From positions 1-64,000 of the forward strand of contig JBGFSC010000006.1 in the NCBI GenBank assembly GCA_041694815.1: DNA of 64,000 nucleotides, in the 5' to 3' direction. Position numbers and translations under genes: made by a program. This stretch comes from Elusimicrobiota bacterium (GTDB lineage Bacteria > Elusimicrobiota > Elusimicrobia > UBA1565 > JACRDR01). The notes beneath the pieces are model-generated. The model saw nothing but the letters and a program-made list of their open reading frames with translations, was not told the DNA's origin and ran no database searches. This document shows, piece by piece, positions 10,326-55,856 of this stretch (positions are counted from its first letter, which is position 1; the number at the start of each line of letters is the position of its first letter).

Positions 10326-10408
10326 GGTGCCAGGCATCCACTTTCTACACTTTATTAACTTTCTTCCTTGAGAAGTTGAGAAAGTGAAGAAAGTGGATGC
10401 CTGGCACC
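10326..10408. repeat. REP/MITE-like palindromic element, family A
   Basis: Ends ggtgccaggcatccactttc ... gaaagtggatgcctggcacc; ACTTT subrepeats every 9 bp. Confidence 0.9.
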
Positions 10409-10986: not shown

Positions 10987-11101
10987 ATGTTGGTGCCAGG
11001 CATCCACTTTCTTATGTTGGTGCCAGGCATCCACTTTCTTTACTTTCTCAACTTCCTAAGGCAGAAAGTCAACAAAGTGTAGAAAGTGGATGCCTGGCAC
11101 C
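10987..11101. repeat. Family A palindromic element (11019-11101) with a 27-bp tandem duplication of its left end
   Basis: atgttggtgccaggcatccactttctt occurs at 10987-11013 and 11014-11040; right end gaaagtggatgcctggcacc. Confidence 0.9.
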
Positions 11102-18725: not shown

Positions 18726-20156
18726 CTAACTTTCGATATGCGGCTTCGATTCCGACCACCCGGCCGGGGTGATGCGGACGAACTTGACCTTCTTCCACAG
18801 CGTGGGCAGGTCCTTGGCGCCCGAGTAGCTCATGCCCGAGCGCAGGCCCCCGGCGAGTTGGTGGATCACCTCCACCGCGTGGCCGCGGTAGGGGACCAGG
18901 GCCTCCACCCCTTCCGGCACCACTTCTAGAATTTCCTCGCGTTCGAGCTCCGCGTTCCCGCGCTCTTTTTGCTTCTTGGAAATCGTCGCCGCCAGGGAGG
19001 CCATCCCTCGGTAAGCCTTGTACTTCATGCCCTTGCGCACCACGGTCCAGCCGGGGCTCTCCTCCGTGCCCGCCAATAGGCTTCCGATCATGACGCAGGA
19101 CGCCCCGCCGGCCAAGGCCTTGGTGATGTCGCCCGAGTCGCGGATGCCGCCATCGGCGGTGATCGGCACGCCCTTGCTCTTGGTGATGCGGGCGCAATCC
19201 ATGATCGCCGAGAGCTGGGGAACCCCGGAGCCCGTGACGATGCGCGTCGAGCAGGTGGCCCCGGGGCCCACGCCCACCTTGACGCCGTCGGCGCCGGCCG
19301 CGGCCAGGTCCCGCGCTCCCTCGAAGGTCGCCACGTTGCCGGCCACGATCTCGATCTCCGGCCAGCGCGATTTGATCTTCTCGACCGCGAGGGTGACGTG
19401 GTCGGCATGCCCGTGCGCCACGTCGACGACCAGCACGTCGGCGCCGGCCTCCCGCAGCGCGGCGCTTCGGTCGATGTAGTCGCCCACGACGCCGACCGCG
19501 GCGCCGACCAAAAGGCGTCCCTTCTTGTCGAGCGAGGCGTAGGGGTAGCGCCGTTTTTTGAGCAGGTCCTTGGCCGTAATGAGCCCCTTGAGCGTCCCGG
19601 TCGCGTCCACCAAGGGTAGCTTTTCCACCTTGTGCTCGTTGAGTATTTTCTCGGCCTCGGAGAGGCTGACTCCAGGCTTGGCGGTGACTAGCTTTCGAGT
19701 CATGACCGAGCCGATCGGCTTGGGGTCGGCACTTTTGGGCTGGAACTGCAGGTCGCGCTGGGTCACGATGCCGACCAGGCGCCTCTGGCCGTCTACGACC
19801 AGCAGGCCACCCACTTGCCAACGGCGCATGAGCTCGCGCGCGCCCGAGACGGTATCGTTCGGCGAGAGGGTGTAGGGCGATTCGATGACGATGCTCTCGG
19901 CGCGCTTGACCTTGGCGACCTCGGCCACCTCCTCCTCGATCGTCAAGAAGCGGTGGATAACCCCCAGGCCGCCATGCTGCGCCATGGCGATGGCCATCTC
20001 TGCCTCGGTCACCGTGTCCATGTTGGCCGAGACGATGGGACACTTGAGCGCGATGCGCCGCGAGAAGCGGCCCGTCGTGTCGACATGCTTGCGCGAGACG
20101 ATGGAGGACCTTTGCGGGACCAGCAGCACGTCGCTGAAGGTATAGGCTTCCTTCAT
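18726..20156 (-). CDS. guaB: IMP dehydrogenase
   Basis: [12 protein letters not shown] pair, [34 protein letters not shown]. Confidence 0.97.
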
Positions 20157-20177
20157 GAGCGCGAATTATACCATGTT

Positions 20178-20257
20178 GGTGCCAGGTATCCACTTTCTAC
20201 ACTTTCTCAACTTTCCTGGGAATTTCAACAAAGTGAAGAAAGTGGATGCCTGGCACC
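20178..20257. repeat. Family A palindromic element
   Basis: ggtgccaggtatccactttc ... gaaagtggatgcctggcacc. Confidence 0.9.
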
Positions 20258-20270
20258 GCCAGCAAGAACG

Positions 20271-20309
20271 TAGGCCCTTGGGCCCTATTATTTTTGCACG
20301 CAAGGCCCA
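20271..20309. promoter_or_regulatory. Palindromic box plus a half box 23 bp downstream, upstream of the FtsH-like gene
   Basis: taggcc-cttg-ggccct (20271), ttgcac-gcaa-ggccca (20294); TGcTAAAAT at about 20330. Confidence 0.7.
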
Positions 20310-20393
20310 TGTCGATTTTGGGCGAGCGTTGCTAAAATCCACAACGTTGTTTTCGTACCTTGCGCGCAAGCCAAGGCAACTCGGGAGGTGGAA

Positions 20394-22460
20394 ATGCTTC
20401 TGTCACAGACTCGGCGGTTTTGGCTGGCCGCGCTCGCCGCGGCCCTCCTCGGAACGTCCGCGCATGCGGTAGGGCGTTCCGACATCGAAATGCTGCTGCG
20501 GCGCCGTGACGCCGCGACCGCAAGGAATCTCACCCTTCTCGTCCGTGACCGTGGGCAGAATTTCCTTGCCAAGATCACGGCCGGCAGGCCGGATTCCGAC
20601 AAGGCCGTGCACGCCTGGGCCTTCGCGCATCCCGAGACCGCGGCCGATCTTTACTCCCTCCTGATTCAACGCGGCCGTGCCGGAGCCGAGGCGTTCGCGC
20701 GTCCGGAGTCCACTTATAAGGGAATCGAAGGCCACGCGCAGATGGTGGCCGACGACAAGAAGGCGTCGGCCGAGCAGGCCAACGGCAACGCGGGCAAGCC
20801 GTTCGACGGCTCAAGCAAGAAGGACGGATCGCTTCCCGTCAATACGGGCCCGGTCGCGAAGCCCAACGGCCAGCCGTCCGCCCAGAAGAAACCGGACAAT
20901 CTCCTCGAGCGCTTGAGGAAGTGGATGGATGATGAGCGCGACGGCGTCCCCGGCTCGAGCGGCAAGCGCGAGAGCGGCAAGGTCACCTTCAAGGATGTCA
21001 TCGGCCTCAAGGAAGCCAAGGCGCAGATCATACAGTTCGTCGACATACTCAAGAATCCCGAGAAGTACGCGCGCCTGGGCGCGGAGGTGCCGCGTGGCAT
21101 CCTGATGGTGGGGCCTCCCGGCAACGGCAAGACCCTTCTGGGCAAGGCTCTCGCCAACGAGGCGGGCTTCTCCTGCTTCATCGCGAAAGCGGGTCCTGAG
21201 TTCTCCAGTAAATGGGTCGGCGAGAGCGCGGCCGAGATCCGCCGCACCTTCGAGCAGGCCCGTGCGCAGGAGCCCTGCATCATCTTCATCGACGAATTGG
21301 ACGGCTTGGCGGCGGCCCGCACCGGCATCGACCAGTCCGTGGCCCGCGAATACAACTCCACCGTCGAGCAGCTGCTCGTCGAGATGGACGGCTTGACCGA
21401 GCACAGCAAGAACGGCAAGGTGCCGAAGGTCTTCGTCATCGGCGCCACGAACCGGCCGGACCTTCTCGACCCTGCGGTCATGCGCCCCGGGCGCCTGGAC
21501 CTGCATGTCGTGATCACCTCGCCCGACATCAAGGATCGCGAGGAGATGATCAAGTACTACGTCAAGAAGAAGAAAGTCCCGGCCAACGCCGACGTGGACT
21601 TCAAGATCCTGGCTGGCCGCACCACCGGCATGTCCGGAGCCGCGATCAAGGACTTCGTCAACAAGGCCGCCTTGGTGGCCGCGGAGGAGAACGCCCAGGA
21701 TGTCACGCTCAAGCATTTTCTCAAGGCCCTCGACCGGCTGCAAATCGGCGGCGAGCGGCGCATGGTGCTTAGCGACGCCGAGAAGATCATTACCGCGCGC
21801 CATGAGCTGGGCCACGCCCTGGTCGCCACCTATACGAAGGGCGGCGATCCCGTAGGCAAGATCACGATCATCCCGCGCGACATCGGCGCGCTCGGCGTGA
21901 CGACCTCCGAGCCGCCGGAAGACCGGAAGAATTGGAGCAAGACCCAGCTCCTCAACCAGATCGCCATGGCCATGGGAGGGCGCGTCGCTGAGAAGATTTT
22001 CTACAACGACGAGACCACCGGCGCCGCGAGCGACCTGGAGAATTCCCAGAACCTCGCCTGGCAGATGGTCGTGCGCTTCGGCATGAGCGAAAAGCTGGGG
22101 CCGGTTTCCTTCGTCAAGACCGCCCAGGGCAATTATCTCTCCGGCGGAGCCTCGATGCAGCCTGTTAGCGAAGAAATTCAAAAGCTCATCGACTCCGAGG
22201 TCAAGCGCTTCCTGCTCGAGGCCGAGCAGCGGGCCATGGCCATCCTTACCGCCAAGAAGGATGTCTTGGACAAGGTGGTGCCATACCTGATCAAACAGGA
22301 AACCATGGAGGGTTCGGACCTGCGCAAGCTGCTCAAGGAGTTAGACACGAACCCGGGAGAGTATCCCGTGCAGGACCCCCCGCCGCAACAGCCGGGCTCG
22401 GATAAGCCCTTCGCGACCACCCCGACCAATCTAGGGTGCTCGGCAGGCAGGCTGTATTAA
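20394..22460 (+). CDS. ftsH: FtsH-like AAA+ zinc protease with a cleavable signal peptide and no TM anchor
   Basis: GPPGNGKT, IIFIDELD, ATNRPDLLDPAVMRPGRLD, HELGH, GGRVAE, TTGAASDL. Leader MLLSQTRRFWLAALAAALLGTSAHA; SD ggagg. Confidence 0.9.
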   Translation: MLLSQTRRFWLAALAAALLGTSAHAVGRSDIEMLLRRRDAATARNLTLLVRDRGQNFLAKITAGRPDSDKAVHAWAFAHPETAADLYSLLIQRGRAGAEAFARPESTYKGIEGHAQMVADDKKASAEQANGNAGKPFDGSSKKDGSLPVNTGPVAKPNGQPSAQKKPDNLLERLRKWMDDERDGVPGSSGKRESGKVTFKDVIGLKEAKAQIIQFVDILKNPEKYARLGAEVPRGILMVGPPGNGKTLLGKALANEAGFSCFIAKAGPEFSSKWVGESAAEIRRTFEQARAQEPCIIFIDELDGLAAARTGIDQSVAREYNSTVEQLLVEMDGLTEHSKNGKVPKVFVIGATNRPDLLDPAVMRPGRLDLHVVITSPDIKDREEMIKYYVKKKKVPANADVDFKILAGRTTGMSGAAIKDFVNKAALVAAEENAQDVTLKHFLKALDRLQIGGERRMVLSDAEKIITARHELGHALVATYTKGGDPVGKITIIPRDIGALGVTTSEPPEDRKNWSKTQLLNQIAMAMGGRVAEKIFYNDETTGAASDLENSQNLAWQMVVRFGMSEKLGPVSFVKTAQGNYLSGGASMQPVSEEIQKLIDSEVKRFLLEAEQRAMAILTAKKDVLDKVVPYLIKQETMEGSDLRKLLKELDTNPGEYPVQDPPPQQPGSDKPFATTPTNLGCSAGRLY

Positions 22461-22482
22461 AGAGTAGAACTCCTCGCGGCTG

Positions 22483-23826
22483 ATGGATCAGCCCGCCGGG
22501 GCTTCAGACGACGCGCTCGGGGCTAAAAGCTCCGAGCGCGTCGTCGCTTTTCTGCTGTTTCTCTGGCTTTTTTCCATCATCTGTTCGTATTACATCCTGC
22601 GCCCCGTCCGCAGCGCGCTGATCCTCTCGGAGTTCGGGCCCAAGGCTCTCCCCTGGGCGTACATGGGCACGGCGCTGTTTACCGGCATCGCGGTCTGGAT
22701 TTACACCCAGTTCACGTACCTGCCGCGTAAGACGCTGCTTACCCGCGTGATCCTGTTTTTTATCTCCAATTTCGCCGTGTTGTGGTGGATCGTCAGCAGG
22801 CGCATCCCTTGGTCGGCCGGCATTTTTTACGTCTGGACGGACATTTTCTCCATCATGGCCGTGACGGTTTTTTGGATGTACGTAAACGACGTCTTTCCCT
22901 CGAAGTCCGCCAAGCGGAGCTTCGGCATCATCGGTTCGGCAGGCCCGGCCGGCGCCATCGCCGGCGCCGCCTTGATCAAAATTTTCGTCCGCCGTGTGGG
23001 CGTGGAGCAGATGCTGCTGGTCGCTGGCGGATTCTTCGGCTTAGGGCTGTTGATTTTTTGGGCGCTCGAGTTCCTCACCGGTGGACGATCGGCTGAGCGC
23101 AAGAAGGCGATAGAGAAATTCGAGCAATACAATTTTTCCGAGTTTTCCAGCTTGATGCGTTCCGTGGCGCGATCAAGGGTGCTGACCCTGTTGACGGTCG
23201 CCGTGTGCTTCGAGCGTTTCGCGCCGGATTTCGTTGATTACGTGTTTTCGGCGGCCCTGCATCATGCCTATCCGGACAAGCTCGGCTACGCGGCCGTCTT
23301 CGCCACCTTCGAGTTCTGGCGCAACGTGCTCGTGTTCATCGCCACGCTGTCGCTCACCTCGACCATCCTGCGCACGCTCGGAGTGCACGTGGCCATTACC
23401 GCCGTGCCGATGACCATCCTCATCGGTGGCGCGGCCTACGCGCTGTTCCCGTTCCTGGGGGTGGCCATCGCCTTGAAGGGCTTGGAGGAGGGCCAGCGGC
23501 ATGCGTGGTTTAAGGCGGGCAAGGAAGTGATCTATACGGCCACGCATTCCGACGTCATCTACAAGGTCAAGGGCTATCTCGAGATGTTCCTCTACCGTTT
23601 TTCGCGGGGTCTGGCTGGCCTCATCATCTTGTTCTTGACCAGCGGTCTGGGTCTGGGCGCCGTCGGCGTGGCCTGGGCCGTGGTCCCGCTGGCCGCGCTG
23701 TGGGCGGTCGTGACCTGGAAGCTGGGCAAGGCGTACGAAACCAGCGAGGCCGGAGCGGCCGATAAAGAGGAGCCCGCTCTCCCCTTGGGCAAAGAGGCGT
23801 CAATATCTCAAGGTGCCAGGGATTGA
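22483..23826 (+). CDS. NTT/TLC-family (ATP/ADP translocase-like) MFS-fold transporter
   Basis: About 12 TM; YYILRPVRSAL, FYVWTDIF, FW..VNDVF...AKR.FG.IG..G..G, KEVIY......YKVKGYLEMFLYR match NTT-family signature spacing. Confidence 0.78.
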   Translation: MDQPAGASDDALGAKSSERVVAFLLFLWLFSIICSYYILRPVRSALILSEFGPKALPWAYMGTALFTGIAVWIYTQFTYLPRKTLLTRVILFFISNFAVLWWIVSRRIPWSAGIFYVWTDIFSIMAVTVFWMYVNDVFPSKSAKRSFGIIGSAGPAGAIAGAALIKIFVRRVGVEQMLLVAGGFFGLGLLIFWALEFLTGGRSAERKKAIEKFEQYNFSEFSSLMRSVARSRVLTLLTVAVCFERFAPDFVDYVFSAALHHAYPDKLGYAAVFATFEFWRNVLVFIATLSLTSTILRTLGVHVAITAVPMTILIGGAAYALFPFLGVAIALKGLEEGQRHAWFKAGKEVIYTATHSDVIYKVKGYLEMFLYRFSRGLAGLIILFLTSGLGLGAVGVAWAVVPLAALWAVVTWKLGKAYETSEAGAADKEEPALPLGKEASISQGARD

Positions 23827-23859
23827 CTTTCGCCTAGGCGAAAGTCAATCCCTGGCACC
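23812..23859. repeat. Perfect 48-bp palindrome, family B
   Basis: ggtgccagggattgactttcgcct|aggcgaaagtcaatccctggcacc; contains the TGA stop of the NTT gene. Confidence 0.95.
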
Positions 23860-23875
23860 GTTGCTACTCAGTATG

Positions 23876-23914
23876 CTGGCGACGACCCCAGGCAATGCCT
23901 CGGGTCGTCGCCAG
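23876..23914. repeat. Hairpin repeat between convergent genes
   Basis: ctggcgacgaccc-c-aggc-aat-gcct-c-gggtcgtcgccag. Confidence 0.75.
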
Positions 23915-23920
23915 ACTTGG

Positions 23921-24331
23921 CTAGTGGCGCTTGCGGACGTCGGCTTCGCGCAGCCTGCGCTCGGCCTCCTTGATCGCCAGCCAATTGCGCTTCACCTCGG
24001 CCGTGCTCTTCGCCCGCCGGCCGCCGAAGACATGCGGGTGGCGGCGCTTGAGTTTAAGGGCTTGGCTCCTGGCGACGTCCTCGATGTCGAAGCGCCCCTT
24101 TTCGCTTTCGATCTGCGCGTGCAGTAGGACCTGCAGAAGCACGTCTCCCAGCTCGTCCTCGATCTCATGCCATCGTCCCCGCTCGAGGGCCCGCTCGAGC
24201 TCCTTGGCCTCCTCGCGCAGGTAAGGGATCAGCGAGCGATGCGTCTGCCGCCTGTCCCAGGGGCAGCCGTTCGGCGCCCGCAACCGTGCGATGAGGGCCT
24301 TCAGGCGCTCAAATTGGCTTGGGCGAGGCAT
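23921..24331 (-). CDS. mazG: MazG nucleotide pyrophosphohydrolase (single domain)
   Basis: RLRAPNGCPWDRRQTHRSL, EDELGDVLLQV, KLKRRHPHVF. Confidence 0.92.
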   Translation of the reverse strand: MPRPSQFERLKALIARLRAPNGCPWDRRQTHRSLIPYLREEAKELERALERGRWHEIEDELGDVLLQVLLHAQIESEKGRFDIEDVARSQALKLKRRHPHVFGGRRAKSTAEVKRNWLAIKEAERRLREADVRKRH

Positions 24332-24382
24332 GAGGGGGCAGTATAGGAAATTTTCCCCGGCCGATAAGATATACTTTCCGGC

Positions 24383-27300
24383 ATGGCGCCACGCCTGTTC
24401 TGCGGCGCGTTCCAGCCGGCTCTCGAGGACGCCTTCTGCGAGCGCTTGGAGAGCCTTAGGCCCGGCCCGGGGCGTCGGGTCATGGTCGTAGCGCCTTCCC
24501 GCCGAATGGCCGAGAGGCTCGAGCGGCTCATCGCCTTCGAGCGAGGGCTCGGTTTCCTGGAACTGCGCGTGCACACCTTCTACAGCCTGGCCCTGGAGAT
24601 TTTGACCTCCTGCGGGCCCGAGCCCTGGATCCTCGCGGCGGACGCCCAAATCCAGGAGCTTCTGGTGCGGGGCTTGCTTACGAGTTCGCGGAGCTTGTCC
24701 CGCGGCCTCGCCGGCGCCTATAGCTCCAGCCTCAAGGACTTAGCCGACGCTGGTGTCGACCCCGAGTCTTTGAGACTGCATTTCGCGGAATGGTTCGAGG
24801 AGCCCCAGCGCTCGCTTCTTAACTCCCTGCTGGAGTTGCTGCAGGCCTATGAGCGGCGCCGGCGCGAGACCGGCCTGGCCTCCTCCTTCGATCTCGTGCA
24901 GCGCGCGACGAGGGTCGTCGAGGAAGGCCGCGAGAACCTGCTGGGTGGCTACCAAGAGATACTTTATTACGGCTTCTACGACTTAACCGGAGCCCAGGCC
25001 GATTTTTTCAACGCGGTCGCCGGCGCCTACCCGTGTTCGGTGTTCTTCCCGTATGTTAAAGGATACCCGGCCTTCAAATTCGTCGAACGCTTCTACGAAC
25101 TGCGCCTTTCGAGAGGCTCCGGGGCGCGGCACCTGCCTCCGGACTGGGGCGGCCGGGCCTTGGGCGAAGGGTTGGGCTGCCTGTTCAATCCCGGCCGGCA
25201 AGCGAGCCTTCCCGAGGGGAGGCTGCGGCTGATCAACGTCTCGGGCTCCAGAGACGAAGTGTGGGCCACCGCCAAGGGAATATTGGCCGCTAGGGAAGAG
25301 GACCCTTCTCTGAGCTTCGACGAGATAGGCGTGGTAGCCAGGTCCCTGGAGCCCTATCGCGCGCTCTTGGCGGAGGTCTTCGAAGAAAACGAAATTCCCT
25401 TCTCCATGGAGGAGGGCGAGCCGTTGTTGAGGCATCCCCTCGCCAAGCTGGCCCTGAACCTGCTCAACCTGGCGCGCATGGATTTTCCGGCGTCCGCGGT
25501 GCAGGACCTGTTGCGTTCGCCCTATCTTCGAGTCAAGGCCTTCGGCTCGGCCCAGCGGCAGGAAAGCGCCTGCCGCGTCATCGCCGCCCTGGGCATCCAT
25601 TCCGGATGGTCGCAATGGGAAGGAATATTCGGCGCGCAGGCCGGACGAGACCCGGACTCGAAAGCCATTTGGGAATGGCTTAGCTCCTTGCGCCAAAGCC
25701 TGCGGGTCGCATCCCCGCCCAGCTGGGCCGGAGCCTCGGCGCATTGGATGACGCTGCTCCAGGACCATTTCCACGTGCCGGTGGGCGATCCCGCCGCCGG
25801 CGTATGGGAGGCGATGCTCGCCGCCACGCAGGAGCTAGCCACCTTCGACCGCGCCGCCGCCGGCGCGGACTATCCAGAGATGCTCGAGGCCCTCGAGCGG
25901 CGTTGGCGCGGCCGCGCGATCCCAGCGCCAGACAGGCGCGGGGTGCGCGTCTTGGGCGCGATGGACGCCCGCGGTCATTCCTTCCGACGCCTGTTTCTAA
26001 TCGGGCTGCAGGAGGGCGTGTTCCCGCGCCAAGTGCGCGAGGATCCCCTGTTGCCGGACGACCTGCGGGCCAGGCTCGCGCATCCGGCGGGCTATTGGAT
26101 CCGGCCCAAGCTCGAAGGTTACGACGAGGAAAGGCTTTTGTTCGCTTTGCTCGTCTCCTCCGCTTCCGAGCGTCTCGTCTGCGTATACCAGCGCTCCGAC
26201 GATGCCGGGAGGGCAACGGTACCATCCTCCTACCTTCGGGAGCTCTGTAGGGCCTGCGGCGTCGACTTCTCCGGCGAGGCCAACCGCCGGGTGCCGCGCC
26301 AGCCATTGGTCAAGGTACGCGAATCGCCCCTCCTCTCGTGGTCTCCCGATGAGATGGCCTTGGCGGCCTGCGCCGCGGGCTCCGACCCCGCGCCCGCCTT
26401 GAGCGCGCTGGGGGAGGAAGCCGGCGCCCTGGCCGAGGTCCTGCGACGCAGCGCCGAGCTCAACCGCCAGGGCGGCCCTGGCCCCATGGACGGCGTCGTC
26501 GGCCCCCCGCGGCATTACCTGCGGCGCTACCGAGCGCGCGGTCGTTCCCCGAGCGAGCTCCAGGAGTACACCCGCTGCCCTTTCCGCTTCTTCATGTCCC
26601 GCGTGCTCCAGATACCGGAACCCGAAGAGGCGGCCCAGCGCGGCGCCTTGAGCGCCGAGAGGCGCGGCCGACTCTACCATGCGGCGCTCCGCCGCTTTCA
26701 TTCGCGCTTGGGCGAAAGCGGCTATTGGAGCGCGCAGGCGGCGGATTGGGTACCCGTGCTCGAGGAGGCCATCGAGGCCGAGATGGGCGCCGCGTCGTGG
26801 AAGACATTGGGCCTTTACCCGGTGCTTTGGGAGGCGATCCGGCGGACGATGACGGAGTACCTGCGCGAGTTCGTCAGCTGGGACTTGGCGGAGCTGCGTC
26901 GCAGCGGATTTAAGCCGGCGCGCTTCGAGGAGGAAGTTTCCTGCACCGTGGACGGGCTCGCCCTGCAGGGAAGGATCGACCGGCTCGACGTCGACGCCGC
27001 CGGAGGGCGTTTTCGGGTGATCGATTACAAATCCCGATCTTCCCGCCGCAGCCTGATGGAGGAAATCGCCGAGCTCCGCAAGCTGCAATTGCCTCTCTAC
27101 CTGGCCATGGCCGAGGCCTCGAGTCTCGGAGGCAAGGACGCCAAGGCCGCCGGCGGCGCGCTCTACGGCATCGAGGCCGAGGGGGATGGAGCCCGGGTCG
27201 AGTCGCTTGGCTCCACCGACTTCGAGCGCCTGCGCCGCGGGCTTTGGGAAGACCTTAAGGAGTACGATCGGCTTATCGCGAAGGGCTTCTTTCCCATCCG

Positions 27301-31954: not shown

Positions 31955-33230
31955 TCGTTTATTCCGCCGGGCTTGCGGACTGCTGCCAGGCGGGGTCAAT
32001 TCGCCGGTGAGGGCCTTCAAGGCGGTCGGCGGCACTCCGCGCTTTATCCGCTCAGGCAAGGGAGCTCGAATTTTAGATGAGGATGGGCGTTCCTATATCG
32101 ATTATTGCCTTTCCTGGGGACCTCTTATCCTAGGCCATGCCCACCCCGCCGTCGTCGCCGCAGCGTCTCGCGCACTGAAAAGGGGATCGAGCTTCGGCGC
32201 GCCGACCGAGGCCGAATCGCGGCTGGCCGAGTTGATCCGCTCCGCCTTGCCCTCGATGCGTATGCTGAGGCTGACGAGCTCAGGCACCGAGGCCGTCATG
32301 AGCGCCCTGCGCCTGGCCCGCGCCTTCACGAGGCGTGACTGGATCGTGAAGTTCTCGGGATGCTATCACGGTCATGTCGACAGCCTGCTGGTCTCCGCTG
32401 GCTCAGGCGCTATGACATTAGGCAGTCCGGATTCCGCGGGCGTACCCGAATCTTGGGCCCGGATGACGCTTTCTTTGTCTTACAACGATGTCGCTTCCGT
32501 CGAGAACGCGTTCGCCCAATATGGCGGGCGCATCGCCGCCGTCATCATCGAGCCGCTGGCCGCGAACATGGGAGTCGTGGCGCCGCGCGAAGGATTTCTC
32601 AAGGCCTTGCGCGAGATCACCCGGCGGCACGGGGCCTTGCTTATCTTCGACGAGGTGGTGACCGGCTTCCGTCTGGAGTTCGGCGGCGCCCAGACGCTCT
32701 GGAAGATAGAGCCCGATCTGACCTGCCTGGGAAAAATTATTGGAGGGGGATTTCCAATCGGCGCTTACGGGGGGCGGCGCGAAATCATGGAGATGGTAGC
32801 GCCTTTGGGGCCGGTGTATCAGGCGGGGACCCTCTCCGGCAACCCCGTCGCCGTCGCCGCCGGCATCGCCTGTCTCGAGACTCTCCGCCGCCAGAAGCCG
32901 TACGCGCGCATGGCGCGTCTGGCCTCGCGGCTCGCCGAGGGGTTGCGCCGGCAGGCGTCGGGACTGGGCGTGCCCTTGACCGTCCAGCAATTCGCCTCTA
33001 TGCTGACCCCTTTCTTTCACGCAGGACCGATCAGCGATTACGCCAGCGCGAAGGCGGCCGACACCCGGGCTTACGCCCGATTCTTCCATGCCATGCTTCG
33101 CGAGGGAATATACCTGCCTCCGGCGCAATTCGAGGCCGCCTTCCTGTCAGCCGCGCATACCGAAAAGGACGTCGATCTCAGCTTGAGGGCAGCGGGTAGG
33201 GCGCTGGATTCGCTAACGCGAAGGACTTAG
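31941..33230 (+). CDS. hemL: Glutamate-1-semialdehyde 2,1-aminomutase
   Basis: PGGVNSPVRAF, SWGPLILGH, SGTEA, FDEVVTGFR, GKIIGGG, YQAGTLSGNP. Confidence 0.97.
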   Translation: MEKSDRLFRRACGLLPGGVNSPVRAFKAVGGTPRFIRSGKGARILDEDGRSYIDYCLSWGPLILGHAHPAVVAAASRALKRGSSFGAPTEAESRLAELIRSALPSMRMLRLTSSGTEAVMSALRLARAFTRRDWIVKFSGCYHGHVDSLLVSAGSGAMTLGSPDSAGVPESWARMTLSLSYNDVASVENAFAQYGGRIAAVIIEPLAANMGVVAPREGFLKALREITRRHGALLIFDEVVTGFRLEFGGAQTLWKIEPDLTCLGKIIGGGFPIGAYGGRREIMEMVAPLGPVYQAGTLSGNPVAVAAGIACLETLRRQKPYARMARLASRLAEGLRRQASGLGVPLTVQQFASMLTPFFHAGPISDYASAKAADTRAYARFFHAMLREGIYLPPAQFEAAFLSAAHTEKDVDLSLRAAGRALDSLTRRT

Positions 33231-33824
33231 CGAGACGAGCACTGGAAGGCCTTTGTAGAAAAAAACGAGGACGCCTTCCGGCAAGCCCATGGCGGCTCTC
33301 TGATCGGCGGACGCTTCCTTGACGCCAGCTACCTTGCGGATGGCCATGAGTACGCGCGACTGAGTCGCGATCCCGCTGTCGATGCCCACGAGTATCGCGG
33401 GGGGCGCGGGGATGACGCCGATGCTTACCCGCGGCCTATCTCCGTCATCGTAAACGGGGATCGGTATGCGATTCAAGGCGTCCGCGAATTCCTTCGCGGT
33501 CCGGAGCAGGTCTTCTTCTTTTGGTGCGCCTCCGCCGAACATGGTCGATAGAATTTGCTCCATCAGCTTGTTCTGATCCGAGCCGCGGCCCTGCGGAGCC
33601 GCTTGGATTTTCGGGATTTCCAGAAGCGGCAGTTTCCCATCCGCATCAGCCAGATTTGCCGGTCCTTCCTTTGTATAGCCTTCCGGCAAGGTGAGTAAGG
33701 GCAGTTTTCCCTGCTCGTCGAATTGGGCATCGCCCTGTTGCCTGGCATCCTCCGGGCTTTCGGCGAAGCAGGGAACGCCCGCTAAGAATACGGCGCTTAC
33801 GGCGAGAGTGAATATGGAGTTCAT
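33213..33824 (-). CDS. Secreted hypothetical protein with the SxExA..FD / KLPLL N-terminal module
   Basis: Signal MNSIFTLAVSAVFLAGVPCFA; N-terminal module paralogous to 35667-36278. Confidence 0.75.
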   Translation of the reverse strand: MNSIFTLAVSAVFLAGVPCFAESPEDARQQGDAQFDEQGKLPLLTLPEGYTKEGPANLADADGKLPLLEIPKIQAAPQGRGSDQNKLMEQILSTMFGGGAPKEEDLLRTAKEFADALNRIPIPVYDDGDRPRVSIGVIPAPPAILVGIDSGIATQSRVLMAIRKVAGVKEASADQRAAMGLPEGVLVFFYKGLPVLVSLSPSR

Positions 33825-33954: not shown

Positions 33955-35664
33955 ATGAAAAAACTACCCGTCGTACTCGCCCTCTTCACCGTATTATCCG
34001 TCGCGCCCAGCCCACGCTCCTATGCCCAGTTCGGCAATCCGTTCGCCGCGCAGGAGGAGCAACATAAGAAGGTCGTAGGAAGGCTCGGCGAAGCGCTCAA
34101 TGCCAAGCAGTCCGAGATGCCTAAGGATGTTTGGAAGAGAGTCCATGAGGAATATAACCGCCTCCTTAATATGCAGCCCCACAATCCCGAGGCCCAGAAA
34201 TCGATAGATTACCTGCAATGGTTCATCGATCTTCCTTGGGGAAAAGAGACCCAGGATCGATTCGACCTGGCGGAGGCTCAAAAGATATTAGACCGCGATC
34301 ATTACGGGCTCGACCAGGTCAAGGAGCGTGTCATCGAGTACCTGGCGGTCCGCAAGAGAACCGCCTCGCAGAAGGGAGGCATTCTCTGCTTCGTGGGGCC
34401 CAAGGGAACCGGGAAAACCTCCATCGCCAAGGCCATCGCCGAGTCCATGGGCCGCAGCTTCGTCCGCTTGTCTCTGGGCGGAGTCAATAACGAGGCGGAA
34501 TTGCGCGGGTTTCAGAGGACCTATATGGGATCACGGCCGGGCAGCATCATCACCCAGATGAAGAACGCCAAGACGATAAACCCCGTGATGCTCATGGACG
34601 AGGTGGACAAGCTGGCCGATGGCAGTCACTACGGCGATCCTCGGGCGGCGCTCTTGGAGATCCTCGACCCGGAGCAAAATAATACCTTCCGGGACCATTA
34701 TATGGATGTCCCCTATGATTTGTCGAAGGTGCTCTTCATCCTCACGGCCAACGATATGAGGAGGATCCCACCGCCCCTGCTCGACCGCGTGGAGATCATC
34801 GAGTTCTCGGCCTACACGGTGCGCGAGAAGGTGGGCATAGCCCAGCACCATATCGTGGGCCGTAAGCAGCGCGAATGCGGCATCAAGCCGGGCTCCTGCG
34901 AGCTCACCGTCGCGGCCATCGAGCAGATCATCGACGGCTACACGATGGAGGCCGGGGTGCGCAACCTGCAGGAGAACATCGGCGGCGTCTACCGCAAGGC
35001 CGCCGCCTGGGAGGAGACCAAGGGCCTGCCCATCCCCAAGAAGATCGATCATGGGCAGGTGAAGGATTACCTGGGAGCCCCGCGCTACGGCCACCGCATC
35101 ATGGAGGAAAACGGCGTCGGGGTCGGCACGGGCTTGGCGGTCAGCGACAACGGCGGGAGCACGCTCAACGTCGAGGTGCTCAAGGTGCCCGGAGACGGCA
35201 AGGTCCGCACCCGTGAGTTGATGGAGAAGATGTTCCAGGATTCCGCCGACAATGCCGTGGCCTACGTCAAGTCCAAGGCCGTGGAACTGGGCATCGATCC
35301 GGAGGATTTCAAGAAATACGATCTGGAGATCGCGATAGCTCCCGCGATTCCGGTCGACGGGCCTTCGGCGGGTACCGCCATGACCACGGCGATCGCGAGC
35401 AGCTTGAGCGGCCGCAGGATCCGTAAGGGAGTAGCCATGACCGGCGAGGTCACGTTGACCGGCAAGGTGCTCCCGATCGGTGGGCTCAAGCAGAAGGTGA
35501 TGGCGGCCGAGCGCATGGGCTACGACACGGTGCTTTTCCCCGCCGCCAACGAGCATGAGCTCGAGGAGATTTCCCCCGAAGTGCGCAAGAAGATGACATT
35601 GGTGCCCGTCAAGACGATGGACGAGGTCTTGAATCTGGCCTTGGAGCCCCGGCCCCAGGCCTGA
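33955..35664 (+). CDS. lon: Lon protease lacking the LON_N substrate domain, with signal peptide
   Basis: LD.DHYGL..VKERV.EYLAV, GPKGTGKTS, MDEVDK, ALLEILDPEQN..F.DHY, DGPSAG (Ser), PIGGLKQK (Lys). Leader MKKLPVVLALFTVLSVAPSPRSYA. Confidence 0.92.
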   Translation: MKKLPVVLALFTVLSVAPSPRSYAQFGNPFAAQEEQHKKVVGRLGEALNAKQSEMPKDVWKRVHEEYNRLLNMQPHNPEAQKSIDYLQWFIDLPWGKETQDRFDLAEAQKILDRDHYGLDQVKERVIEYLAVRKRTASQKGGILCFVGPKGTGKTSIAKAIAESMGRSFVRLSLGGVNNEAELRGFQRTYMGSRPGSIITQMKNAKTINPVMLMDEVDKLADGSHYGDPRAALLEILDPEQNNTFRDHYMDVPYDLSKVLFILTANDMRRIPPPLLDRVEIIEFSAYTVREKVGIAQHHIVGRKQRECGIKPGSCELTVAAIEQIIDGYTMEAGVRNLQENIGGVYRKAAAWEETKGLPIPKKIDHGQVKDYLGAPRYGHRIMEENGVGVGTGLAVSDNGGSTLNVEVLKVPGDGKVRTRELMEKMFQDSADNAVAYVKSKAVELGIDPEDFKKYDLEIAIAPAIPVDGPSAGTAMTTAIASSLSGRRIRKGVAMTGEVTLTGKVLPIGGLKQKVMAAERMGYDTVLFPAANEHELEEISPEVRKKMTLVPVKTMDEVLNLALEPRPQA

Positions 35665-35666
35665 TC

Positions 35667-36278
35667 ATGAGCAAGGCCACGGCAAGCTACTGGCTCGCCT
35701 TAGCCATTATCGCGCTCTCTGCGGTTGGCCGCGCGGCGGAGACCGCCAAAAGCGACGAGGAGGCCAAGCAGCAGGCTGACCTCCAATTCGATGAGTCGGG
35801 CAAACTGCCCCTACTTACCTTACCGAAAGGGTATAAAGCGGAAAGACCGGCGATGGGCAGTCTCGGAACAGCTCCTCTTAATATCACCGATGCGCAGGAC
35901 AAGCTTCCGCTCTTGCCGATCCCTTCACCGGCTCCAGCCCGACGCGCCGGGCCGAACGTGCTTGAAGGGCTTATCGGCAGCTTGATCGGCTCCGCCATCG
36001 GCAGCCATGTATTTGTCAATGTCTTTACCCCGATGTTCTCGGCGCAGCCGCTGCTGATCCCCATCGTCGCGGCTATTTTCGGCATGTCCATGGGGACTCG
36101 CATGGCCATGCCGATGGCGATGTTGATAAGGCGTCGCTGGCCCATGATCGTTATGCCCCTGTTGCTCGGAGCCGTTTGCTTCCTGATCCCTCCCATGGGT
36201 GGAGCGATATGGGGAATGATGATTCTGGGACCGCTATTCGCCCGCCTTTTGGCTAAACTCGGGTCTTTAAAGAAGTAA
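35667..36278 (+). CDS. Secreted/membrane protein with the SxExA..FD / KLPLL module and a hydrophobic Met/Gly-rich C-terminus
   Basis: Signal peptide; 2 bp after lon; several C-terminal hydrophobic helices. Confidence 0.75.
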   Translation: MSKATASYWLALAIIALSAVGRAAETAKSDEEAKQQADLQFDESGKLPLLTLPKGYKAERPAMGSLGTAPLNITDAQDKLPLLPIPSPAPARRAGPNVLEGLIGSLIGSAIGSHVFVNVFTPMFSAQPLLIPIVAAIFGMSMGTRMAMPMAMLIRRRWPMIVMPLLLGAVCFLIPPMGGAIWGMMILGPLFARLLAKLGSLKK

Positions 36279-55808: not shown

Positions 55809-55856
55809 GGTGCCAGGGATTGACTTTCGCCTAGGCGAAAGTCAATCCCTGGCACC
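55809..55856. repeat. Perfect 48-bp palindrome, family B
   Basis: Identical to 23812-23859. Confidence 0.95.

Follow-up and report, generated by a model that had tools for sequence, protein, structure and literature searches.

A TM2-less FtsH-family protease encoded next to an NTT/TLC-like carrier in an Elusimicrobiota bacterium: a candidate module for ATP use in the periplasm

Can an ATP-dependent protease operate in the periplasm, a compartment regarded as ATP-free, if a nucleotide carrier encoded right behind it were to bring in the fuel? This question is raised by two genes in the window, by which we mean the whole 64,000-nucleotide stretch of DNA analysed here (Elusimicrobiota bacterium, GenBank assembly GCA_041694815.1, contig JBGFSC010000006.1, positions 1 to 64,000 of the forward strand). 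One encodes an FtsH-family AAA+ zinc protease without the second transmembrane helix (TM2) of canonical FtsH (here EXP-FtsH; 688 residues from the ATG at 20394; 20394..22460, plus strand), the other an NTT/TLC-like carrier with 12 helices (447 residues; 22483..23826, plus strand). An earlier note on this DNA had described the two as an exported FtsH directly coupled to an ATP/ADP translocase-like gene and had proposed that the pair serves ATP supply across the inner membrane or else nucleotide theft from prey. Our answer is a tentative one: that the carrier performs ATP/ADP(+Pi) exchange and thereby fuels a periplasm-facing FtsH, in analogy to mitochondrial Yme1, AAC and AK2, appears to us a serious possibility, if somewhat short of an even chance. 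Judging by their sequences and distribution, the two genes are a lineage-specific module.

The protease and the carrier

In its C-terminal body EXP-FtsH resembles any other FtsH. Pfam matches were obtained with Peptidase_M41 (196.1 bits), AAA (128.9 bits) and AAA_lid_3 (36.9 bits), none with FtsH_ext, and the AAA module (21099..21515, plus strand) carries Walker A (GPPGNGKT), Walker B (IIFIDELD), a pore loop (KWVG) and sensor-1 with the arginine finger (GATNRPDLLDPAVMRPGR), followed by the M41 peptidase domain (21762..22331, plus strand) with its zinc motif HELGH. Scored against TIGR01241 the protein reaches 486.6 bits, which is under the equivalog cut-off of 600, and the alignment begins at profile position 153 of 598. 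It shares 43% identity with the canonical FtsH of its own genome over residues 196-647, and when the two are aligned EXP-FtsH shows a gap exactly at TM2.

What remains ahead of the AAA module is a single hydrophobic segment at the very N-terminus. The protein starts with MLLSQTRRFWLAALAAALLGTSAHA followed by VG, an n-h-c layout as in a Sec signal peptide, in which (by eye and hydropathy) residues 1-25 (20394..20468, plus strand) provide an n-region with RR, the h-region FWLAALAAALLG and the c-region TSAHA. Next comes a polar N-domain or linker of about 170 residues (20469..20978, plus strand), poorly conserved and, according to alignment and hydropathy, devoid of a second hydrophobic segment. 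Kyte-Doolittle profiles over 19 residues (KD19) peak at 1.49 in EXP-FtsH with the next peak at 0.77, compared with peaks of 1.98 and 2.22 in the canonical FtsH of the same genome. A twin-arginine (Tat) signal, for which TRRFWL in our genome (G000) might be taken, was rejected, as the orthologue of genome G001 lacks the twin arginine (SRFKLF); hence, Sec is the likelier export route.

Four members of the EXP type were found: those of G000, of G001 (53% identical to ours) and of G005 (51%), the latter two from another genus of the same family, the three genomes representing two genera, and the metagenomic protein P0088 (48%). In each of the four, a single N-terminal KD19 peak of 1.14-1.69 stands out from any other pre-AAA peak (1.07 at most), and the segment, a short h-region preceded by basic residues, ends in AHA, AQA, AHA and ARA in G000, G001, G005 and P0088, respectively. 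Absence of TM2 and a signal-peptide-like N-terminus are seen in 4/4 members, in line with the exported FtsH of the earlier note, while export itself stays a prediction from sequence. Although identity across the four is 42-46%, Walker A, the Walker B DE, the sensor-1 TN and the RPGR arginines are invariant and so are the zinc-site residues H470, E471 and H474 and the third ligand D547. Conservation of catalytic motifs against such divergence indicates that ATP use appears to be under selection.

Among 17 FtsH paralogues taken from six genomes of the family, the G000, G001 and G005 proteins group in a tree as a clade of their own (support 100/99) with long branches, apart from the canonical clade and also from paralogues of genus g2 that have a normal TM2. 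Besides EXP-FtsH, G000 encodes a canonical FtsH (contig C24, adjoining an hpt-like gene by eye) and a third paralogue (C27). Word-indexed homologue searches with residues 1-200 returned only the query itself and residues 28-197 gave no usable match in the ESM Atlas. An exhaustive representative search with the whole protease yielded mostly ordinary FtsH and multi-AAA proteins, and among 8 inspected of the 150 matches listed only P0084 (the G005 protein) and P0088 were of the EXP type. P0088 derives from a contig of 3,079 bp; used as query in a 401-genome sample of the phylum, it found G000 as the sole match at E<=1e-125. As a side observation, genus g2 (G001, G005; loci L129, L132-L135) encodes extra FtsH paralogues with a signal-peptide-like first transmembrane helix, outside domains of 150-500 residues and a normal TM2. 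As far as such predicted topologies go, the family shows an expansion of FtsH architectures.

The product of the second gene is, on the profile and structural comparisons that follow, a distant but full-length member of the NTT family, with its nucleotide substrate and direction of transport only putative. This bears out the match to the TLC family (TC 2.A.12) expected in the earlier note: Pfam TLC, PF03219, scores 40.4 bits (cut-off 21), in this case over residues 102-321 only, and a profile built from 22 carrier homologues aligns over full length with the solved NTTs 9j3n (E 6e-21) and 9j3j (E 1.4e-12). An AlphaFold model of the carrier (pLDDT 89, pTM 0.87) retrieves NTT1 entries at ranks 1-5 of the PDB, including ATP-bound and ADP/Pi-bound states (TM-scores 0.65-0.74, E 1e-9 to 1e-11), generic transporters of the major facilitator superfamily (MFS) being about five orders of magnitude worse (E ~1e-6). 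Many basic residues (R40, R43, K144, R245, R339, K344, K347, K363, R372, R375) are invariant, and a word-indexed search returned 66 homologues, the named ones among them labelled Elusimicrobia or 'AAA family ATP:ADP antiporter'. G000 has two TLC-family genes; the other one, 27% identical to the first, is in the region C25:43175-49987 and has PiT- and PhoU/DUF47-like genes (by eye; PiT being a phosphate transporter) nearby on the opposite strand.

Conservation and surroundings of the pair

Where the genomic context of EXP-FtsH is known, the carrier gene is its immediate neighbour. EXP-FtsH and a carrier orthologue of more than 50% identity are both present and adjacent in G000, G001 and G005, neither was found in G002, G003 and G004, which belong to other genera of the same family, and in five more genomes of the order, whose carrier relatives reach 47% identity at most, neither EXP-FtsH nor a carrier orthologue above 50% was found. 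Between G000 and the g2 loci similarity is confined to the two genes, their flanks being non-syntenic. Adjacency amid differing flanks and joint absence from three sister genera together argue for a module that is kept and moved as a unit within a narrow clade. Conservation of the pair, on which the earlier note had set store, therefore holds for 3/3 genomes with known context, yet it is that of one small clade (see below).

Relatives of the carrier reach much further and were collected as 79 loci (one genome per species of the Genome Taxonomy Database, GTDB) from Elusimicrobia, Obscuribacterales/Melainabacteria, Myxococcales and Gemmatimonadota. A candidate for an exported ATPase beside the carrier at L081 was judged false by eye, and 6 loci from a carrier scan of metagenomes contained no signal-peptide P-loop protein. 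Clade-specific neighbours at other carrier loci are MscS, subtilase, peptidase C26 and arsR-arsC-Acr3. The last of these contexts is an observation in its own right: at 8-9 Elusimicrobia loci (L070-L085) a carrier relative of 36-39% identity lies just 5' of arsR, an ArsC-type low-molecular-weight phosphatase gene and an SBF/Acr3-type permease gene, which suggests that this carrier subclade is linked to arsenic handling.

Coming back to the window, open reading frame (ORF) calling confirmed both genes (20388/20394..22460 and 22483..23826, plus strand). A Shine-Dalgarno-like GGGAGG, read from the sequence (20383..20388, plus strand), is found 5 nt ahead of the ATG at 20394. The TAA of the first gene ends at 22460 and the ATG of the second begins at 22483, which leaves a spacer of 22 bp on one strand (22461..22482, plus), just as the earlier note had stated. 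Upstream, guaB (IMP dehydrogenase; 18726..20156, minus strand; Pfam IMPDH 467 bits) is divergent; downstream, a gene for a MazG-family NTP pyrophosphohydrolase (23921..24331, minus strand; Pfam MazG 91.8 bits) is convergent, so that in the direction of transcription the unit consists of the EXP-FtsH and carrier genes alone. Beyond MazG follow AddB/AddA-like genes, hemB and other housekeeping genes, and a Pfam scan of the window neighbours found no secretion-system genes flanking the pair. The host genome (2.77 Mb in 54 contigs, 97.8% complete; the window lies on its contig C9) belongs with Elusimicrobia, metagenome-assembled genomes of which supply the named relatives of the window proteins. 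With ordinary housekeeping genes around the pair in a genome of 2.77 Mb and no pointer to prey or predation, we do not follow the earlier proposal of nucleotide theft from prey.

The pair is also flanked by two palindromes reminiscent of repetitive extragenic palindromic (REP) elements. An 80-bp copy (GGTGCCAGG...CCTGGCACC; 20178..20257, without strand) occupies the intergenic region of guaB and EXP-FtsH, and a 48-bp copy (23812..23859, without strand) runs over the end of the carrier gene and provides its final codons and stop. The family, in 48-bp and ~80-bp forms, has 48 copies in the genome, others in the window being at 10326-10408, 11019-11101 and 55809-55856. We considered that the two palindromes might mark a mobile cassette but do not use their position as evidence for one because the 48 copies are scattered genome-wide. 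Rfam detected no known RNA in 20000-24500; its sub-threshold matches of miRNA hairpins to the palindromes are spurious.

Other ATP users with signal-peptide-like starts

We scanned all ORFs of G000 for products that combine a Walker A motif with a signal-peptide-like start and lack any other hydrophobic segment, and examined 8 of the 29 candidates. Two of these, the canonical Lon and a UvrA-like protein (the latter by eye), were judged false positives, and Pfam confirmed, besides FtsH, a Lon-like protease, a ClpA/B/C-like double-AAA protein (C2), an AAA_5 protein (C20) and an adenylate kinase (Adk). The Lon-like protease (33955..35664, plus strand; ORF opening 3 codons after a stop) has AAA, Lon_lid and Lon_C but no LON N-domain and starts with MKKLPVVLALFTVLSVAPSPRSYAQ. 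A second Clp (C15) is 60% identical to that on C2 and has a like signal-peptide start. Signal-peptide-like N-termini are missing from the housekeeping Lon, both ClpP, DnaK, NDK and the canonical Adk of the same genome.

The additional adenylate kinase (C9:74299-74958; L140:3300-3959) bears a signal-peptide-like extension of ~30 residues. Its type is present in 28/61 related genomes, canonical Adk in 61/61. A signal peptide with a Pro/Ala/Val-rich linker behind it is seen in at least 12 of the 28. In genome G042 the extra Adk is fused behind a domain of Endonuclease I, a family of periplasmic or extracellular enzymes; a further fusion, to a PRK/uridine-kinase-like domain, was noted in G045 (further loci: L228, L229 and L230). 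Signal-peptide ATP users and an extra Adk add to the plausibility of an adenylate pool outside the cytoplasm in this order.

Several of these genes have neighbours worth recording. The Lon-like gene is flanked by P0069 and P0070, small exported or membrane proteins (35667-36278, plus strand; 33213-33824, minus strand) with a common N-terminal motif, QFDExGKLPLLTLPxGY, and no match to a Pfam family. The C2 Clp (G000:C2:20000-25683; L138: 48-1391, 1388-2008, 2005-2622, 2716-5136) is encoded immediately after an exported WD40 protein and a pair of small membrane proteins. These three neighbours have a common tail (...ERFKLQ or ...DRFKL), and the adjacent exported Clp suggests that this ending could be its recognition tag. 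The AAA_5 protein (899 residues, two AAA_5 modules) belongs to a run of seven same-strand genes (G000:C20:59083-70249, L139), all with signal-peptide-like starts and several with an LFDG motif shortly after. An 'FDG' tag of exported proteins was considered and not used, given weak enrichment under a lenient heuristic (28/614 vs 38/1412, odds ratio 1.7, p 0.04).

Proposed mechanism, rival explanations and known systems

The mechanism we have in mind would run as follows. With TM2 lost, a Sec-type signal peptide would take the whole ATPase-protease body of EXP-FtsH across the inner membrane and into the periplasm, where the enzyme would be soluble or loosely tethered. Given the high cytoplasmic ATP of a free-living cell, the carrier would act as counter-exchanger with ATP going out and ADP (+Pi) coming in, the latter being the products of the exported ATPase, and the extra signal-peptide Adk could buffer the periplasmic adenylate pool. 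Export and cleavage at the signal peptide, substrate and direction of the carrier and functional coupling between the two proteins are thereby things we infer. A wider claim, namely that the lineage runs an ATP-energised periplasm with NTT carrier, Adk, exported TM2-less FtsH, N-domain-less Lon, two Clp and AAA_5 protein, may be entertained too, and here we are more doubtful.

A good deal weighs against this mechanism. Export of EXP-FtsH is predicted from hydropathy, charge and AxA patterns judged by eye, the signal-peptide heuristic of the ORF scan was lenient enough to flag the canonical Lon too, and ATP is expected to leak from the periplasm via outer-membrane porins. The carrier scores 34.4 bits against TIGR00769 (NTP/NDP exchanger), far under its cut-off of 387.2. 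The signal-peptide Lon was seen in G000 only, its nearest relatives having LON N-domains or membrane helices. The proposal of ATP supply across the inner membrane, as made in the earlier note, gains from the further signal-peptide ATP users and the extra Adk described above but loses from genus g10: orthologues of the signal-peptide Clp occur in 5/5 g10 genomes (N-terminus visible in 4), none of these five genomes (91-97% complete) gave a TLC match, and exported AAA+ proteins of this order hence do not strictly need an NTT-like gene. Similarly, TLC and extra Adk co-occur loosely among the 61 relatives (both in 19, TLC only in 8, Adk only in 9, neither in 25; kinship not corrected), and no signal-peptide Adk was found in five distant TLC holders.

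The pair itself is open to objections as well. An FtsH gene is in the flank at only 2/79 carrier loci, L008 (G005) and L009 (G001), about 68 of the 79 including at least 2.1 kb upstream by our count, and a scan of L008-L092 for signal-peptide P-loop neighbours of the carrier came back with the same two. As the three pair-bearing genomes represent two genera of one family, they amount to two independent observations at most. Gemmatimonadota have carrier relatives of 51-52% identity, others occur in Obscuribacterales, Myxococcales and further Elusimicrobiota, and their unrelated contexts imply a carrier role independent of this protease. Finally, there is the junction. A GC-rich hairpin of 18 bp with a T-rich tract behind it (22507..22545, plus strand) covers carrier codons 9-21, 25 nt inside the ORF; at -39.5 kcal/mol (z -7.86; 0/200 shuffles as stable) it is terminator-like and unique in the genome, and strong hairpins of other sequences are found in the L008 and L009 spacers. 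This means that simple co-transcription is not assured in any of the three genomes, and transcription may often stop once the protease gene has been read. Of the direct coupling claimed in the earlier note, the 22-bp gap and the absence of a plus-strand promoter-like site from 20100-24500 speak for it and these hairpins against it. In G000, with the hairpin inside the carrier ORF, carrier transcription must pass through it, so that an attenuator or 3'-stabiliser setting unequal expression is possible; equally well, the hairpin may terminate most transcripts.

How do other explanations fare with the same evidence? EXP-FtsH could be cytoplasmic, its N-terminal segment serving as an uncleaved N-out/C-in anchor or weak tether, and the carrier could be an unrelated MFS-type protein or else a substrate or regulator of the protease. 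All FtsH, Lon and Clp enzymes known act where ATP exists, the long branches of the EXP clade may signal relaxed constraint, the carrier family mostly occurs without the protease, and the charge balance in G000 is indecisive (by our count ~+2 before the segment and ~+1 within 15 residues after it). Nonetheless, we consider this rather unlikely, as the segment is short and weakly hydrophobic (the KD19 range of 1.14-1.69 compares with ~2.0-2.2 in true FtsH helices), ends in AxA in all four members and is preceded by basic residues, with a neutral or acidic stretch after it in G005 and G001 (again our count). Moreover, like N-termini are found on the extra Lon, Clp and Adk and not on housekeeping copies, and one genome carries a fusion of the Adk type with Endonuclease I. 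That same fusion (G042) and the wide occurrence of the extra Adk in the order fit with the carrier being a salvage importer, exported nucleases and Adk turning external nucleic acid or AMP into ADP/ATP, and with its adjacency to FtsH being inherited synteny or regulatory. NTTs of plastids and intracellular pathogens are described as ATP importers in the portion of a preprint covered here (bioRxiv 10.64898/2026.03.31.715626), and functionally characterised NTTs are tied to parasites in the corresponding portion of another source (PMC5381601). The many genomes that have carrier relatives and no EXP-FtsH and the terminator-like hairpin between the two genes speak for it, too. Such an importer is unlikely in our view, as it is at odds with joint gain, loss and movement of the two genes (three genomes with non-syntenic flanks, three sister genera without both) and with the five distant carrier holders that lack a signal-peptide Adk; besides, an extracytoplasmic Adk needs ATP or ADP where it works, and so salvage also implies adenine nucleotides in the periplasm.

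Another scenario would have the protease exported yet independent of the carrier, either without ATP turnover, with another route for ATP, or with its action in vesicles or other cells. While the g10 genomes, with signal-peptide Clp in 5/5 and no TLC match, speak for it, it sits badly with invariant ATPase motifs in the EXP clade, with the carrier as immediate neighbour in 3/3 known contexts and with the lack of secretion-system genes around the pair. Since G000 has just two TLC-family genes, a chance neighbour of exactly that family seems unlikely (a judgement, and not a computed probability), and to our minds the scenario is quite improbable.

If, on the other hand, an exported FtsH does run on ATP from its neighbour, the implications are considerable. 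The assumption in envelope biology that the periplasm is free of ATP explains why proteases and chaperones there work without it and why Lol, Lpt, Ton and Bam draw their energy from the inner membrane; exported, intact AAA+ proteases with an adjoining nucleotide exchanger would break this rule. NTT carriers would be shown to be ATP exporters, NTT homologues of free-living bacteria would acquire a function and Yme1-AAC-AK2 a prokaryotic analogue. An ATP-energised periplasm would further mean ATP-dependent proteolysis and remodelling outside the cytoplasm and thus a bacterial counterpart of the intermembrane space. Should the protease turn out to be cytoplasmic instead, it would represent a naturally occurring FtsH held by one weak anchor and be informative on how FtsH topology and tethering evolve.

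As for precedents, no such system was found in the portions of the literature that our searches covered on periplasmic ATP with FtsH/AAA+, on signal-peptide AAA+ proteases and on exported or periplasmic adenylate kinase. NTT genes occur widely among free-living bacteria, their roles unexplained, as stated in the part of Major, Embley and Williams (2017, PMC5381601) covered here, where Elusimicrobia are named once among the taxa. The free-living homologues treated there include fusions with HEAT, cNBD and other domains; to the extent of that part, protease pairing does not feature and 'periplasm' has 0 occurrences in the main text. According to the portion of the preprint cited above (bioRxiv 10.64898/2026.03.31.715626), ATP export is known only of the mitochondrial AAC, NTTs being importers of ATP.

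Canonical FtsH (MEROPS M41; TIGR01241; E. coli FtsH/HflB) has AAA module, lid, M41 peptidase and all catalytic motifs in common with EXP-FtsH. However, its two N-terminal transmembrane helices around a periplasmic domain place catalysis in the cytoplasm, whereas EXP-FtsH, an additional paralogue with a long branch, has one weak, AxA-ended segment and no FtsH_ext and stays under the TIGR01241 cut-off. Likewise, the carrier shares Y-x-x-LR, FYV, FW..AN, EAK, F...KE..Y and KxK with NTT1 of Chlamydia pneumoniae (9j3n/9j3o) and of the Arabidopsis plastid (9j3j/9j3l/9j3m), yet is only 17-18% identical to these solved structures, ~50-60 residues shorter with loops missing, and encoded by a free-living host.

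A further comparison is with the mitochondrial intermembrane space, which i-AAA Yme1 faces, to which AAC, the ADP/ATP carrier, supplies ATP and in which AK2 buffers adenylates. G000 has analogues of all three, an FtsH-family protease, a putative nucleotide exchanger and an adenylate kinase, with a localisation that is predicted here. The likeness is meant as an analogy and has its limits: AAC is an SLC25 carrier and ours is of the NTT/MFS type, and while Yme1 is stably anchored, EXP-FtsH has a signal peptide that looks cleavable.

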